A stretch of DNA of 63,987 nt, counting the filler, from Dirinaria sp. TL-2023a (lineage: Eukaryota), in the NCBI GenBank assembly GCA_051941275.1. It is 15 parts of 15 records of this genome, joined end to end, with 100 filler letters (N's around TTAATTAATTAA, not from the genome) between each part and the next. Parts side by side here need not be neighbours in the genome. Positions count along the whole stretch, not along the records: positions 30,207 to 34,396 come from JAVEBF010001890.1; 14 more parts are not named here. The stretch is one strand, 5' to 3'. Shown in pieces: positions 4,233 through 46,505 of this stretch (positions are counted from its first letter, which is position 1; each line of letters opens with the position of its first letter). Under the pieces are notes generated by a model. That model was given only the letters and a program-made list of their open reading frames with translations, did no database searches and was not told where the DNA came from. Made by a program: the position numbers and the translations under genes.

Positions 4233-4332
4233 NNNNNNNNNNNNNNNNNNNNNNNNNNNNNNNNNNNNNNNNNNNNTTAATTAATTAANNNNNNNNNNNN
4301 NNNNNNNNNNNNNNNNNNNNNNNNNNNNNNNN
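4233..4332. other. Artificial contig-joining linker (first of 14)
   Basis: 44 N + TTAATTAATTAA (stops in all six frames) + 44 N. Identical linkers at 8558-8657, 12883-12982, 17196-17295, 21501-21600, 25804-25903, 30107-30206, 34397-34496, 38685-38784, 42970-43069, 47254-47353, 51531-51630, 55806-55905 and 60065-60164. The contigs between them never increase in length (4225 down to 4159 nt). Confidence 0.99.
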
Positions 4333-5806: not shown

Positions 5807-6372
5807 CATAGAGCGTCTTGCCACAAGTGTTTCCCACCATGAAAGTCTCGGTCTAGACAACAACGTCGTCAGCTGCAGCTCTGAATTTTAGATTATCAAA
5901 TGATAAGTAGATGAACGGATTTTTCAGATCAAGTGTAATTTGGATGGTCGTCAACCGGTTCCAAGTAATTTTGAAATCGTCCGTATTGCAGAACTCTTTA
6001 GCTTGCTCATCATGGTCAGAGAAGGATCAAGAGAAGAAGAGTTCCACCCACAAATTATCTGTGGTTCAGAAGGCTTTGAGATTGTGGCATTTTGTTCCTA
6101 GGTCTTCCCATATGCATCATGTTCGCAAGCACCACAAAACGCGTGACGGACGTCATTTTTAATCTGTGTATTTCGCGATTCCCAGGTGAAGCTTTCAAGA
6201 CGCGACTAAATTAAGGCGGTCGAACATATGGCCGACTGAGCACGCGATTTTAGGCGGCCGTTGATCGCACATGACTACCTCAAGCCCTCGCTTATCAGCA
6301 AGATTGTAGACTTGCCACAGAAGTTCCTTACCACATCTCAAAGTTATTAGCAAGATGCAGAGCTCATCTTGC

Positions 6373-6995: not shown

Positions 6996-8211
6996 ATGGA
7001 GGGATCGGACTCTGCAATGGACTCATCACTGTCATCCCATGCCTCAAGCGAATTTGGCGATGAGGTCCGCACCGAGGAGCCCAATCTAAGTGAGGACGTC
7101 GAGGAACCTGCCGATACACCCTCCGCACCACCAGCAAAGAAGCAGCGGCTTGGGCAATACGCATATCGCGCCTCGACAGCTACCACGAACGACTATGACG
7201 CCGGCGAACTATCCTCAGATACCTCAGGGAGCATTCCCAGCTCGCCACGGGCTTCCGGTTCCACTCCTGAAGATGATGTGCAGGAGCAAGTCACAGTCTG
7301 CAGATGGCTGGGCTGTGAGGCTGGCGATCTTGGGAACATGGACACCCTGGTCCAGCACGTCCATGACGACCACATCGGTGTGAGGCAGAAGAAGTACGCG
7401 TGCGATTGGGAGGGATGTCCGAGGTTGGGCCTGAACCACGCCAGTGGATATGCTCTGAGGGCACACATGCGGAGTCATACACGTGAGAAGCCGTTCTTCT
7501 GTGCTTTGCCAGGTGAGATACTTTATGAGCTGTCTACTTTAGGTTGGGAGCTTGGCTAAAAAAAAGGGGTCTACAGAATGCGACAAATCCTTTACACGCT
7601 CCGATGCCCTGGCTAAACACATGCGTACAGTCCACGAAACCGAAGCACTCCGCCCTTCCGACCCGATCCCGCGCAACCACTCTTCAGCCGGAATGAAGCC
7701 GCAGCGTTTGAAGCTCGTCATGAACACCAAGCCTCGGAATATCGAAGAAGAAGGCGGTGAAGGGGACGTGGACGACGACGCCACGATTGGAAGCAACACC
7801 GATACGGACGGCGAACCGAAAATCTCCAAGGAATTCGACCCCCCGGCCGAGTTGGGGTTCACGGCGGACGAGCTGGCGATGCCCATCGACGAACTCTATA
7901 AATTGAGCCGGTACCAAGTGCACTGGTCCGAGGAGGCAGGTAAGGAGCTCCAGAAAGAAGTCGCCGAGCTCGAGGGTAAGTACAAAGCTGAATGGCAGAA
8001 GAAGGAGCTCGTACTCGACAACCTGATGGAGATGGAGGTCGCGAACGCGGACTACAAGCGCCACAAGGACCCGGCCGTGATCAAGGCGCTGGCGGACGAT
8101 CTTCCGAAAACGGTCCTTCCGATCAATGGTCCCGTCTGGTGGCGCGAGGGGAGCCCAATGCGGGAGGATAGTCGCGTGAGGGAGGAAAACGCGAAGCAGA
8201 TGGAGGGCTAA
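6996..8211 (+). CDS. C2H2 zinc-finger protein, INO80 complex subunit Iec1-like
   Basis: Exons 6996-7512 and 7577-8211; intron 7513-7576 (GTGAGA..CTAA..CAG). Fingers CRWLGC..HVHDDH, CDWEGC..HMRSH and FCALP|ECDKSFTRSDALAKHMRTVHE, followed by a C-terminal coiled coil. Confidence 0.85.
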
Positions 8212-31123: not shown

Positions 31124-32278
31124 CTAACCTGTGGTAAGCGGCGCAATACGATCAAGATTCCCGGGCCTTTCCAGCAAAGGATGTGCGTCGATATGTTTAG
31201 AATGCATGCTTGCCACTTCCGGCACGATCAGAGACTCAATCTCGATCACGGGCTCACCTGCACCTTCGATTTCGCTCACTTGCGACTCAGCTACAAGTGT
31301 AGCATTCGTAGGCCGCTGGGTGGAAGGATTTGCGTCGGAGATGCTCTTGACCCTTCTGTGCAAAGGCACCCTGATCCAATACTCCTTCCTCCCAGGGGCA
31401 ACAAAAACCACCTCCCACTTTCTTGTTGATAGCAGGTTGCCTATTACCAAGTGATGCGAATATTTTGCGAGCGCACTCTGTGATTTCGAAACGAGGATTG
31501 AGGGATCGGTCTCAAGCTTGAAGCTGACTATCATGCCTTGCGGCGCCCAGCCTTCAACCAGCTTTTTTAGAAATTTGGGCACCGGGTCTAGGTCGATCAA
31601 CAGTCTTCGCGGTGGGGCCGAGGCAAGTTCCGATCGCAAGTAATCATCTTTTTGGGCGTCATTTTGTCCTGACGACTGGATTTTGTGCTCTGACATCCGA
31701 TCGATAGGGATGAAGAAGTCCGAGACTGCCGCAGCTAGATAGAATAAGGCAGATGGTCCTAGAGGCCTCATCAACGTGGCAATCTCCTTGAGACCCCATA
31801 GATATTCTGAGACGGAGACAAATGACAAGGTCAAGAGGGTATTGTCGCTCTTGGCGGCGTTGTACTTCCTGGAGACTTCCCTCATGTGTTCTTGATGTTC
31901 CTGCTTTGCAACGACTTGGCCATCCTTGTTCTCCTCTAGATAGTCGAGGAAGCAATTCGTCGTATGGCTGTAATGCCGCGAATACGGGAGGAGGGAAAAT
32001 TGGCGATGAAGAAAGATAACAGCATATCCATTCTCGAGAAAGTACTCGGCAGACGTCGCACCTCGAGTACCAGCCGAGAAATTATCGATAAATCGCACTG
32101 TCTGGTTTTCTAATGGAACAGTAGTACCGCCGGAGGTGATAAGCACTACTCGACGTTTCATTTCGACATGCTCTTGAATAAAGGCCTTAGCCAATTGAAC
32201 ATAATTCTGTAGATTCTTGGGCGGTGGATTGTTTTCGAAGTAATTGACTCTACCTGGCCCATCTTCATCTGAGACCAT
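31124..32278 (-). CDS. CAB2: Phosphopantothenate-cysteine ligase (CoA biosynthesis)
   Basis: Motifs VLITSGGTTVPLE..VRFIDNFSAGTRGATSAEYF, FYLAAAVSDFF, SEHKIQS, VSFKLETD and VIGNLL. The likely ATG is at 32278. Confidence 0.95.
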   Translation of the reverse strand: MVSDEDGPGRVNYFENNPPPKNLQNYVQLAKAFIQEHVEMKRRVVLITSGGTTVPLENQTVRFIDNFSAGTRGATSAEYFLENGYAVIFLHRQFSLLPYSRHYSHTTNCFLDYLEENKDGQVVAKQEHQEHMREVSRKYNAAKSDNTLLTLSFVSVSEYLWGLKEIATLMRPLGPSALFYLAAAVSDFFIPIDRMSEHKIQSSGQNDAQKDDYLRSELASAPPRRLLIDLDPVPKFLKKLVEGWAPQGMIVSFKLETDPSILVSKSQSALAKYSHHLVIGNLLSTRKWEVVFVAPGRKEYWIRVPLHRRVKSISDANPSTQRPTNATLVAESQVSEIEGAGEPVIEIESLIVPEVASMHSKHIDAHPLLERPGNLDRIAPLTTG

Positions 32279-32485
32279 GGTAGCCAGCCAACTGTACGCC
32301 TGCTCTGTAAAGGTACTCACGTATTCTCGGAACGATTTAGTATATGTTTCGTCCTGGAAAATTGTATTCACAATCTTCCACAGCTCTACACTTAATTCAG
32401 GGAAAGAAGTAGTGTCGAAGTGTTTATTTAACTCGATTTTAGCAATGTAATATATAGAGGTGTAGGGATGTGAAGAAAACCAAAC

Positions 32486-32494
32486 AAAAAAAAA
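32486..32494 (-). terminator. Pol III oligo-T terminator of the tRNA-Arg gene
   Basis: T9 run on the minus strand immediately after the discriminator base. Confidence 0.8.
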
Positions 32495-32625
32495 CACTCT
32501 CGGTGGGGCTCGAACCCACAACCCCCAGATGCCGTTAATAGAAGTCTGATGCGCTGCCCTGTAAAATGGTTAATCGAATTTTTTTTTAAAGATTTAAGGA
32601 CAAACGAACATTGCGCCACGAGAGC
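32495..32625 (-). tRNA. tRNA-Arg(UCU) with two intervening sequences: a 51-nt GT-AG intron in the D-loop and an 8-nt canonical intron after position 37
   Basis: Exons 32625-32610, 32558-32539 and 32530-32495 join to GCTCTCGTGGCGCAATGGCAGCGCATCAGACTTCTAATCTGGGGGTTGTGGGTTCGAGCCCCACCGAGAGTG (72 nt). Stems: acceptor GCTCTCG/CGAGAGT, D GCGC/GCGC, anticodon TCAGA/TCTGG around TCT, T-arm GTGGG-TTCGAGC-CCCAC. The discriminator is G. Confidence 0.93.
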
Positions 32626-32643
32626 TGGATCTATGATCTGCGC

Positions 32644-32659
32644 TTAATTAAATAATATA
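32644..32659 (-). promoter_or_regulatory. Upstream TATA-like element of the tRNA gene
   Basis: TATATTATTTAATTAA lies about -34 to -19 from the mature 5' end, where TFIIIB is expected to bind. Confidence 0.5.
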
Positions 32660-35298
32660 CTTTAATTTGTATATTTTTTTCAAAATATACAACAAACATT
32701 CCACTCTGCCTCGGTGTACCTTAAAGTACTGCCGGTAAACGCTAACCTGTGTGCGGGCCGGAAGCCTCAAACCATGAAGTCTTAGTCAGCAACCACTGGA
32801 GAATTTCCGAGCTTCTCTCCCTGAGAATGTGTGATTGAAGCATAATGATACATCATACTTATGATATTCAACATCGAAAGGTCTCACAGATAAAAGGTAT
32901 GGCGGAGTCGATGGATGGTTGAGGCAATGTAGGGGAGGACTGGATTATTCAGATGACTGCTGCTGCTTAAGCGGAACGATGCAATGTAAAGGAGACAGAC
33001 TGCAAGCTCGATACTCTGCGCGATTAACATTGGCTCTCCCAGTATCTTTTGGAAACCCATTTGGAGTCCTGCGAAAGGTACTAGAAGACGATCATTAATT
33101 TTTTGAAGGCTACGGGGATTCAATCTCAGCGATTCTTCAGATACAGTACACATACAGTGTCTCGAATTTTCATCACGAAGTTCAAGCACGGAGATCGATG
33201 TGCTTCCAGAAGAGTCAATAGAGATATAACTGTATTTGAAAGACTTTAGATTGGAAACACGTCTATCAGAGAAATTGGCATATCATCTTTGTGTTTTGCT
33301 AAGAGTAAGCCCGTCGCTAAAAGCTTTTAGGGAGACGGTAAATGTTGTGGTCAGGAATCATCTCGTCTGGTTAGTGCGTGTTGAATTTTCCCTGGAAGCT
33401 TTCACTCGGATACTATACTGCCTCGGCCTACAAGCCCGGCATTGTCATCCAGAATGGTGATCTCGGTCTCGAACTACCCTCGAAGACCATCATCCACCGA
33501 GTCAAATTGTATTCATCAGGTGATCGACTGATCGCGACCCTTTTTGGACGAGACAATAGTGTTCGACAGTATGGGTCCGTCACCTTGTGCGGTGCTAACC
33601 GCTTGAACGGTGCGGTATTGTGCTTGGGCGACCAATTCGAGCAGTGTCTGAAAGTGTATTAGAGACCCCTATGTTAGAAATGTATGGTTTCAGGTAACTC
33701 ACAATTGGTACTGATTTGCTCCGGCCCCCACGGATCTCGTCCGCGCAGATATGGATGCTCTACCTCGCCGTGAGAAAACTGGGCTGGAATATGCGAGTGT
33801 CAAAGTTATCGGATATAAGGAAGGAAATGAGACCCCCGTCATGTATGCTCGTGGGCATGATATGCACACACGGAGCCTTATGGCAGCCCAGGATCTGCTT
33901 CAGGCCGCAAGAAGAAACACGGATGATATGAGCAATTCGGCTTCCAACATCATGTAATAATGTCATGCTAGCCGTATTTTCATATCTTTTTAAGCAGAGC
34001 CACACAGGTCGCCGGCATACTTCTATATTCGATGATTGGGAGCTCCTCTCACGTTTATCTCAAGTATCTGCTCATGCCTGGTTTCGTACCAAAAAGCCGT
34101 GCTGCTCCACTCTACTACATCTGAACACTTTTACAGCTTCATATCCCACCAATTTCGTTTGATAAATGAACTATATCCAATCTTCTTCTTCACGGGCTCA
34201 CACTCTTCACCTTCACATTCGTAAGAGACGTCTCCTAAATCGTATCTCTTGCTTACGCCCCCAAAAAGCCCGCGAAATTTATCAGCGGACGCTTCTATTC
34301 CATCATCCACCTCCCCCTCCCAAAAAAAAACTAACAAAATTCCGAGGTTTTATTCTTCTCTACATGGCACGGACGTTGGAAGAGATATCAGAACCTNNNN
34401 NNNNNNNNNNNNNNNNNNNNNNNNNNNNNNNNNNNNNNNNTTAATTAATTAANNNNNNNNNNNNNNNNNNNNNNNNNNNNNNNNNNNNNNNNNNNNCACT
34501 TGGGTCGGGGGACGTCGCATTGCACAAAACGTGCGAATCAAGATCGAGGGGTAGATACATGTAATCAAGGTTGATGACTATCAATCATGCTGCCTTGCGA
34601 CTTGGTGCGGAAGGGATGATCCCTAAACAGGATCCTACGAATATTCGTGGAGGCGCTTGCCAAGGATGACCTCCCGCGTCGGCATGCTTCTTCTAAACTT
34701 GTGCCCCCCAGTTCCATCCTCCAATGTAGTTGTGTAGCTGTGTAGCTGCTTCCACATTTCTGCGTTCCGAGGCTCAGCTTCCTGGGCAAGTATGCGTCAC
34801 GCTCCTTTCGTTGCAGCCTCGTTAGGAAAAAGTCACCGAACCTTTGCTGGATGGAAGATGGAAGATGCCGTGCTCGTCCCCCATTTGCGGTCAGTAGCCC
34901 GGGGCTGAAAAGTACGTTATCTAGGTCATGGATTTGTTGAAACAGGTAGAGAACGCTGTGCCACATGCGTGGTCGTTTAGCAAAGCGCATCTGGCGAGAA
35001 AAGCACAAGACCACAGCCTGCTGCAAGAAAGTATCGACCATTGATGAATAGTAAGTGCCCTGCTTCCCATCAGACTGCATTTCGCTCCAAGTCATCCTGA
35101 GGCTGTACTGACGCTTGAAAGGACAAGGCTCGACGTAATTCTGGACCTGCAGTCTCGGCGTTCAGATCGACAGACTGGGTCCGTGGAATCGGTCCCGTCC
35201 AGTCATAACGGTCTAGGGGCGCTTGATATTGATTGCTCCTTGCTCCAAGAAATTATGAGCGTAGGCATTGTCTGAACTATCAAAAAATTCCGGTAACA

Positions 35299-44329: not shown

Positions 44330-45335
44330 TGTGCCGCGTGCGGCTTCCCCGCTTTCTTGCTCAACGTTGGATAGGGTTCAGGACGCAGGTGGGCAAGGTT
44401 ATTCGTCTTCGAGTATTGTATCACTGACGAGGTGACCAACAATACACTCATAAACAGAATATGCTTCAACCGCTCTTGTTTTGTTCAAGTAGAACTGGGG
44501 CTGGTATAATAAGCGTTCACTTGGAGTCGTGGAGGCAACAATGTTGAGAGAATACAGCTGGTGTAGAGCAGGCCTAAGCTTCTGACATTGTCTGGATCAA
44601 TATAATGCTGCTTGTTGTTGTTGCCCGATCGACACCTTTTGATGGAGTGTAGAAGTCAGGGTGTGTAGAATATGTACTACTGCTTGGTCAGAGGATTGCA
44701 TGCAGAATGAATGACAAAGGCGTGACCCTGTATGACTCCCAGTGACCTGTGACCACCCGAGCCCGGAAGCTTATGGCGAGCATAAGCGCGAGAATTGTCT
44801 CAACCCCTTATCCCAATCCCCAGATAATGGCCGCCTAGAAGTACCGAGAGTACCTACCTTACTATAGGTACCTAGGGCCGAGGGGGCCCAGGTACCGAGG
44901 CGAGCGAGGGTACCGCCTAGAAGGTGCTCAATATGTCATCGATCACGTGATGCCGAAATTTCCCTGATCGGGCAATTCTCTTCTATCCATCGCACACTCG
45001 CACTGATACGATAATTCACTTCAAACCCCTGGATAACCGTGGAACAAATATCAATAATGGTAAGTACGTATTAAAGATATATTACTCAGGGACCAGAGCT
45101 GCGATGCCTTAGCGGCCGGACTCGCCGGACTACCTTATCCACCCGATCAGAGCCACAGATAAAATCGTAGCCGATTCTCAAGACTGCGCTGCACTCACCA
45201 TCACGAGCTGATTCTTACAAAACTCCCAAACCCCTTCACCGCAACAATGGATCCGGCGTCATCACTGCCATCTGTCTCCTTGGTGGATTTATCTCTACCA
45301 TCTCAAAATTTTCCGAACGAGCCTGGTTGAGTACA

Positions 45336-46505
45336 ATGGCTCAAGTGGTCACTTCAACCCGGCCGCTGCTTCAACGTGCTCTATGTAATAAGCAAAGTCT
45401 TCGAGGATCTGTAGCCGTGCGCCCGGTGACTGTCCCGACCGGTCAGACTCGCCACAGCTCGCACTCCCCCTTGGGCTCGCCGCCGGCGACTCCCAGAAAG
45501 AAGACTACCATCAACACTTTACGCTCGCTATGGCAGAAGCAAGAGCCCATTACGATGATCACGGCACACGACTTTCCTAGTGCACACGTTGCCGACCATG
45601 CTGGCATGGACATGATCCTGGTCGGAGACAGTCTGGCTATGGTAGCTCTCGGCATGGAAGACACAAGCGAGGTAGTACTTGAAGAGATGATATTGCACTG
45701 TCGGAGCGTATCGCGGGCTACTAAGTCGGCCTTTACGGTATAGAGCGCACCTCTATGGGCCAGTCTTCCTTCTCAGGCTAACGTCTGGTCCTAGATTGGT
45801 GATCTACCTATGGGCTCCTATGAGATAGCCCCTGAGCAAGCCCTCGAATCGGCCGTCAAAATTGTCAAAGAAGGCCGAGTCCAAGCCGTCAAGCTCGAAG
45901 GTGGCCTTGACTTCGCACCGACGATCGAGCGTATCACTAAAGCCGGCATACCTGTTCTGGGTCATGTCGGCCTGACCCCACAACGACAGAATGCATTAGG
46001 TGGATTCCGTGTCCAAGGAAAGACAACCGACGGAGCTCTCAAGGTTCTCCAAGACGCTCTCGCGGTCCAAGAGGCAGGCTGCTTCGCCGTCGTTCTGGAG
46101 GCCGTCCCGGCGGAGGTAGCATCCCTGGTCACCAGGAAGCTAAGGATACCGACTATCGGCATTGGTGCTGGTAACGGCTGCTCTGGGCAAGTCCTAGTGC
46201 AGGTTGATATGTCTGGCAATTTCCCTCCAGGCCGCTTTCTACCTAAATTCGTGAAGCAGTATGGCGACGTCTGGAGTGAAAGTATGAAAGCCATCCAAAG
46301 CTATAAAGGTACGTCTATCTATCGTTCTCTTCTATCCTGTCCTACCCTACTTTGACTGTGCTAACATACAATAGATGATGTCAAAAGCCGCGCCTACCCC
46401 GCTCCTGAGCACACCTATCCGATGCCTGTAGAGGAGCTTAATGAATTCGAAAGACTCATCGGCATGCAGCAAATCTCTACATCGCGTGCAGTCGATTCAG
46501 CCTGA
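45336..46505 (+). CDS. ECM31: 3-methyl-2-oxobutanoate hydroxymethyltransferase (PanB), with probable mitochondrial presequence
   Basis: Exons 45336-45737, 45795-46308 and 46375-46505. Motifs ITMITAHD, ILVGDSLAM, GDLPMGSY, VKLEGG, GHVGLTPQ and PTIGIGAG. Confidence 0.95.

Follow-up and report, generated by a model that had tools for sequence, protein, structure and literature searches.

A candidate spliceosomal intron in the D-loop of a tRNA-Arg(UCU) gene of the lichen-forming fungus Dirinaria

A tRNA-Arg(UCU) gene of Dirinaria, a lichen-forming Lecanoromycete (ascomycete), is interrupted twice, by an 8-nt intron at the canonical position of eukaryotic tRNA introns and by a 51-nt insert in the D-loop. 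We are fairly confident, judging by its sequence, that the D-loop insert is a spliceosomal-type intron. The fuller reading that we prefer, in which the insert is a U2-type GT-AG intron and the gene that carries it is most likely in use, is put forward with evenly balanced confidence, and its basis is a single locus. In the textbook view, tRNA introns lie at position 37/38 and are removed by the endonuclease TSEN and a ligase, and GT-AG introns are a property of Pol II transcripts, a division whose known exceptions are snRNA genes and lichen-fungal rDNA.

The gene lies on the minus strand at positions 32495–32625 of the window, by which we mean the whole stretch of DNA that was analysed (63,987 nt), and it measures 131 nt with both intervening sequences, as delimited with Rfam family RF00005 and ARAGORN. 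All of its parts are given here in the minus-strand direction. Direct reading together with cloverleaf pairing places the 5′ exon at 32610–32625 (16 nt, with the 3′ end GGCGCAAT); it contains the 5′ strand of the acceptor stem, U8, G9, the 5′ strand of the D-stem, and A14, A15 and U16. The candidate intron follows at 32559–32609, between U16 and G18. Within it, direct reading identifies a candidate 5′ splice site, GTTCGT (32604–32609), and a candidate 3′ splice site, CAG (32559–32561), and TTAAC (32569–32573) is a candidate branch site, the presumed branch A lying 11 nt before the insert ends. The middle exon (32539–32558, 20 nt), placed by the same two approaches as the 5′ exon, runs from G18 to A37 and holds G18, G19, C20 and A21, the 3′ strand of the D-stem, A26, the 5′ strand of the anticodon stem and the loop CUUCUA up to A37, which includes the anticodon UCU. 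Between A37 and A38 lies the 8-nt element TTAACGGC (32531–32538; i(37,8) in the ARAGORN output), which by its position at 37/38 is a canonical eukaryotic tRNA intron. The 3′ exon (32495–32530, 36 nt; ARAGORN and cloverleaf pairing) comprises A38, the 3′ strand of the anticodon stem, the variable loop, the T arm, the 3′ strand of the acceptor stem and the discriminator base G73. A run of nine T residues, which resembles a Pol III terminator, adjoins the discriminator base at 32486–32494.

None of this is apparent to the usual search tools. ARAGORN reported no tRNA in the untouched window, either in default mode or with its intron option, and a default Rfam run at the gathering threshold did not detect the locus. 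When the 51 nt were removed in silico, so that GGCGCAAU is joined to GGCAGCGC, ARAGORN called a tRNA-Arg(tct) and placed its 8-nt intron at position 37. The untouched locus was matched by RF00005 with permissive filters only, with a score of 41 bits (gathering score 29) over model positions 1–71 of 71, in an alignment that absorbs a 54-nt insertion in the D-loop and a 10-nt insertion in the anticodon loop. In the 72-nt product that remains when both intervening sequences are taken out, all 21 stem pairs of the cloverleaf are standard (19 Watson-Crick and 2 G-U), and the conserved U8, A14, G18, G19 and U33 and the T-loop GTTCGA can be read. An earlier note on this DNA had described a tRNA-Arg(UCU) gene with a D-loop insert in addition to a canonical intron, a fully paired 72-nt cloverleaf after excision, a T9 terminator with no sign of decay and a gene that standard finders would miss. 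Direct reading and ARAGORN bear out this layout and the cloverleaf, the exons are intact with the T9 run directly behind the discriminator base, and the failure of the finders extends to both ARAGORN modes and to the default Rfam filters.

The internal promoter elements are retained to different degrees. A motif scan located the B box, GGTTCGAGCCC, at 32506–32516, and this is the sole exact match to GGTTCGANNCC in the window. The A box (32608–32618) is split by the insert and reads TGGCGCAATGT as compared with TGGCGCAATGG; it keeps 10 of its 11 positions despite the interruption because the insert begins with G. The distance from A box to B box is 102 nt in the gene, as against 43 nt without both introns, and a spacing of roughly 102 nt also results from the longest intron in natural yeast tRNA genes. 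Base composition separates the parts of the locus, with 61% GC in the exons, 25.5% in the insert and 28% and 31% in the two flanks. T runs within the insert reach four residues at most, and the absence of a longer one is uninformative because only 20,295 of 100,000 shuffles of the insert hold a T run of at least five.

Two further observations concern the window at large. At 5922–6018 on the minus strand, the sequence matches the C/D-box snoRNA family Afu_191 (RF01499) at 45 bits, below the gathering score of 60 (E = 0.00077), and probably represents a diverged snoRNA gene. The window also contains 28 blocks of N, 1,232 N in total, among which paired blocks of 44 N recur about every 4.3 kb (for example 4233–4276 with 4289–4332, and 34397–34440 with 34453–34496). 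Their regular spacing suggests masking and not assembly gaps, and none of them touches the tRNA locus.

The identification of the insert as a spliceosomal-type intron comes from its own signals. It starts with GT and ends with CAG, has G at +5 and T at +6 of the donor, and carries the TTAAC motif at its branch distance. The excision register is ambiguous by one base (G/G), and one of the two registers is GT-AG. The weight of this combination was measured with 2,000,000 composition-preserving shuffles of the insert, both registers being allowed. GT..AG arose in 4,847 of them, and the fuller set of GT..YAG, G at +5, T at +6 and YTRAY located 8–20 nt from the 3′ end in 18, a figure that is optimistic, the true one being less extreme, because this fuller criterion was set after the sequence had been seen. 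The insert holds only five G residues, and three of them stand at +1, +5 and -1. Its removal recreates the D-arm TGGCGCAATGGCAGCGC, which occurs unchanged in 10 uninterrupted tRNA-Arg(UCU) genes of other eukaryotes, recovered from metagenome contigs. On the shuffle counts, chance is not a serious explanation for the splice signals of the insert.

Comparison with the mRNA introns of the same window gives a more mixed picture. The comparison set consists of 13 candidate introns, six of which were validated: four because a Pfam profile breaks off at the donor and is taken up again at the acceptor (in genes for Sec2p, a C2H2 finger protein, ketopantoate hydroxymethyltransferase and a sugar transporter), and two by an annotated protein of the same genome. 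The 13 candidates are 48–116 nt long with a GC content of 38–59%, and nine of them have YTRAY 10–13 nt from the 3′ end, so that the insert, with its 51 nt and a branch distance of 11 nt, falls within the local pattern. At the donor, G occupies +5 in 11/13 and T occupies +6 in 8/13. Position +3 is A or G in all 13 and T in none, and the insert has T there; similarly, the first branch position is C in 10 of the 11 candidates with YTRAY and T in just one of the 13, and it is T in the insert. Four more candidates that would join open reading frames and start with GTT had no Pfam support. The extended donor of the host genome is GTRNGY-like, and the usual branch motif is CTRAY-like. The spliceosomal-type signals claimed in the earlier note (GT, a branch-like TTAAC and CAG) are all present, and the description of the insert as sized like the mRNA introns of the window holds, though their range is wider than the 48–67 nt it gave. 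GTTCGT, which it named as a fungal 5′ splice site, is an atypical donor for this window, G at +5 and T at +6 agreeing with the local introns and T at +3 not. The low GC content of the insert next to that of the local introns marks it as something other than a recent copy of a typical one, and a search of the 64-kb window for insert-like sequence elsewhere returned matches to A runs only.

The validated introns display some peculiarities of their own. The 57-nt intron of the ketopantoate hydroxymethyltransferase gene (45738–45794, plus strand), across which the Pfam profile continues from positions 1–78 to 80–248, has the unusual donor GTATAG with A at +5. Other validated donors read GTAATT and GTGAGA, and the donor sites of this genome appear to be loose. 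The validated 64-nt intron of the C2H2 zinc-finger gene (7513–7576, plus strand) has an A8 run right after a CTAA branch-like motif, which recalls the A9 run in the tRNA insert.

Spliceosomal introns in genes for structured RNAs have been described before, and the identity of the host is relevant because lichen fungi are known for ectopic spliceosomal introns in rDNA. In a protein search, the zuotin open reading frame of the window was 100% identical to a protein labelled as coming from a Dirinaria metagenome-assembled genome, and the next named matches, to further lichen-forming Lecanoromycetes, came from Stereocaulon, Psora, Teloschistes, Ramalina, Physcia and others. Among lichen-forming ascomycetes, ectopic spliceosomal introns occur in nuclear rDNA (Bhattacharya et al., 2000, as cited in PMC6652019 and PMC8527467), and a 57-bp rDNA intron of Cladonia grayi was correctly spliced from Pol I transcripts in yeast (PMC8527467). 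The lichen rDNA introns resemble the insert in their host group, in being short (57 bp as compared with 51 nt), in residing in a structured-RNA gene that is not transcribed by Pol II, and in their richness in AT, since a hand count from the primer table of the same paper gives about 26% GC for the ends of the C. grayi intron, next to 25.5% for the insert. They differ in belonging to a Pol I rRNA gene instead of a Pol III tRNA gene, and the donor of the intron described there, GUAAGU, is stronger and the branch site matches the yeast consensus, in contrast to the GTTCGT and TTAAC of the insert (PMC8527467).

The second precedent is the U6 snRNA. The intron of Schizosaccharomyces pombe U6 (Tani & Ohshima, 1989, 1991), a Pol III transcript that is spliced by the spliceosome, and the many introns of fungal U6 genes (Canzler et al., 2016) are summarised in a review (PMC5855946). 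As described there, these are short GT-AG introns with a 5′ splice site, a branch site and a 3′ splice site in a small structured Pol III RNA, as would be the case here, and are otherwise unconserved in sequence and thought to arise via reverse splicing. U6 is hit by introns because it sits in the catalytic centre of the spliceosome, and tRNA lies outside it; the gene described here differs further from U6 in having a second intron, of another class, that would be removed by TSEN. The earlier note had invoked both fungal U6 and lichen rDNA, and the sources agree with it on each (PMC5855946; PMC8527467). The list of hosts given in that review names U1, U2, U5, U6 and rRNA, and tRNA is absent from this list (PMC5855946). 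A literature search in full text, with subscription papers outside its reach, found no spliceosomal intron in a tRNA gene.

According to the preferred reading, a U2-type intron would have been gained by a nuclear tRNA-Arg(UCU) gene in its D-loop, between U16 and G18. For U6 and rDNA, the textbook proposal is that such an intron is reverse-spliced into an abundant RNA, with reverse transcription and recombination as the later steps. Pol III would then transcribe the 131-nt precursor, directed by the near-intact A box and the intact B box, up to the T9 run. The unstructured insert would loop out where the D-loop is variable, so that the tRNA body may still fold. Working in the nucleus by intron definition, as on the fission-yeast U6 intron, the spliceosome would then remove this AT-rich insert, and TSEN and ligase would next remove the 8-nt intron at 37/38. 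In yeasts the TSEN step is cytoplasmic, and therefore the spliceosome would act first. A different reason for this order had been offered, namely that TSEN needs a folded body, and it is not compelling: because the insert is unstructured and located in the variable part of the D-loop, the body could fold around it. As a whole, the earlier interpretation stands as regards the sequence-level signals, the fit of the excision, the failure of the finders and the precedents, and is less well supported as regards the donor GTTCGT and the reason given for the order of splicing.

The main rival to a live, spliced gene is a dead copy, which we regard as a real possibility on the doubtful side. It would mean that an intron-derived or intron-like insert stays in the Pol III transcript or that the gene is silent, the locus being a recently inactivated paralogue with exons still free of decay and AGA being decoded by other, intact copies. 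As tRNA-Arg(UCU) genes are normally multi-copy in fungi, one loss would be tolerated. The two bases of the insert that depart from the local intron pattern, the T residues at donor position +3 and at the start of the branch motif, also count in favour of a dead copy, as do the split A box and the more than doubled spacing between the A and B boxes. A further argument comes from other tRNA-Arg(UCU) genes. A pattern built on the middle exon matched 49 loci in metagenome contigs, 38 of them tRNA-like and 11 chance matches, and a D-loop insert was present in none of the 38 tRNA-like genes, which say little about close relatives because they belong mostly to yeasts and other non-lichen eukaryotes. 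One of these, an ordinary metagenomic tRNA-Arg(UCU) gene (L048), shares every base of the interrupted gene between U8 and position 48 except in the intron, which is of 11 nt instead of 8 nt at the same 37/38 site; like the other 37, it has an uninterrupted D-loop. The same pattern gave four matches in contigs of prokaryote genomes and two in viral contigs, none of these six being tRNA-like, and a scan of the metagenome contigs for the 3′ junction (AG followed by the middle exon) gave no match.

Against a dead copy stands the integrity of the gene. All the stem pairs, the B box, the T9 run, the conserved U8, A14, G18, G19 and U33 and the GTTCGA of the T-loop are intact. The AT-rich, flank-like insert nevertheless keeps G at +1, +5 and -1, which fits selection on splice signals over time better than a newly made disabling insertion, and an insertion that arose by reverse splicing would be a spliceable intron by construction. 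The signs of life are the exact B box, the A box with 10 of 11 positions, the T9 run and intact exons of high GC content, and those against it are the division of the A box and the spacing of the two boxes. From its sequence the gene looks alive, the exons having stayed intact while the insert would have drifted to the composition of the flanks, although, for a recent insertion, exons that are intact would be weak proof of this.

A spliced gene might also be transcribed by Pol II, and this alternative we hold to be quite improbable. The tRNA would in that case be carried in a Pol II transcript of the downstream gene that starts upstream of the tRNA, the insert would be a 5′-UTR intron, and RNase P and RNase Z would cut the tRNA out. 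The arrangement of the locus is in its favour, since the tRNA gene lies 217 bp upstream of the ATG (at 32278) of a phosphopantothenate-cysteine ligase gene on the same strand (31124–32278, minus strand, with a DFP domain), and so is the fact that co-transcriptional splicing is normally tied to Pol II, as stated in the lichen rDNA work (PMC8527467). Against it, the exact B box that belongs to the tRNA gene itself and the T9 run that adjoins the discriminator base make up a standard Pol III unit, and we infer from these and from the near-intact A box that the gene is transcribed by a polymerase other than Pol II. Moreover, Pol II is unnecessary because removal by the spliceosome has been documented for Pol I and Pol III transcripts (PMC8527467; PMC5855946).

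The tRNA gene itself is also crossed by open frames. One of 71 aa (32431–32643, minus strand) spans the whole tRNA gene, the insert corresponding to 17 codons, and another (31124–32569, minus strand) leads from the insert's end into the ligase gene downstream, so that naive ORF callers could extend the N-terminus of the ligase into the tRNA. A search with the 71-aa frame for mis-called orthologues among 1.84 billion protein representatives gave three weak matches, of which P0121 and P0123 were rejected as orthologous loci, being repetitive proteins unrelated to the locus. A ketopantoate hydroxymethyltransferase gene (45171–46500, plus strand) lies about 13 kb from the ligase gene in the window; both belong to the pantothenate/CoA pathway, and their proximity may be a coincidence.

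That the insert is a chance AT-rich insertion or a fault of metagenome assembly, its GT-AG ends being coincidental and the insert unrelated to introns, we consider highly improbable. The source is indeed a metagenome-assembled genome and the composition of the insert equals that of the flanks, but the shuffle frequencies given above speak against coincidence. A misjoin at a repeated tRNA would be expected to swap the flanks and not to add 51 nt in the D-loop, and by direct reading any target-site duplication is limited to one G, and terminal inverted repeats are absent.

Removal by an endonuclease and a ligase, with TSEN acting on a relaxed bulge-helix-bulge, is scarcely credible. Introns outside 37/38 and in the D-arm region do exist in Archaea, in Cyanidioschyzon merolae and in nucleomorphs (PMC3978253; PMC10485636), and they resemble the present case also in being missed by standard eukaryotic finders and in occurring more than once per gene. 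They are distinguished, however, by a bulge-helix-bulge and a splicing endonuclease, in place of which the insert has GT, a branch motif and AG. Folded alone, the insert reaches 0 kcal/mol and 200 of 200 shuffles fold at least as well. In the minimum-energy fold of the precursor, the 5′ junction lies in an unpaired stretch of 10 nt and the 3′ junction inside a weak helix, and no bulge-helix-bulge (a 4-bp helix between 3-nt bulges) was present across the junctions. According to a 2023 review, TSEN as it occurs in fungi and animals, with four subunits, can remove introns at 37/38 only (PMC10485636), and the endonuclease route is unlikely because the bulge-helix-bulge is missing, the insert is unfolded and TSEN is limited to that position. 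A group I or group II self-splicing intron was rejected, since the Rfam intron families had no match in 32300–32800 at E values up to 10 and an unstructured 51 nt is too small.

If the preferred reading is correct, a known oddity of lichen fungi and of U6 would be extended to tRNA, as a further class of exceptions to the division between the two kinds of intron, and two splicing systems would act on a single 131-nt precursor. The gene would be the second natural Pol III substrate of the spliceosome, after U6, and would allow the idea that reverse splicing is directed at abundant structured RNAs in general to be tested directly. Even if the gene is dead, it would still document a datable case in which a non-coding gene gained an intron. 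In practical terms, eukaryotic tRNA finders would under-count the tRNA genes of such genomes. A wider idea, which we consider unlikely, is that lichen fungi hold a hidden class of spliceosome-dependent tRNA genes, short, AT-rich and unstructured GT-AG introns having spread by reverse splicing into rRNA genes and Pol III-transcribed tRNA genes. Were this true, standard annotation would miss these genes systematically, and some tRNAs, here the decoder of AGA, would need two unrelated splicing machineries. The supply of tRNA would then be tied to the capacity of the spliceosome, along the lines of the slow-growth and stress logic that has been proposed for the rDNA introns of lichens.
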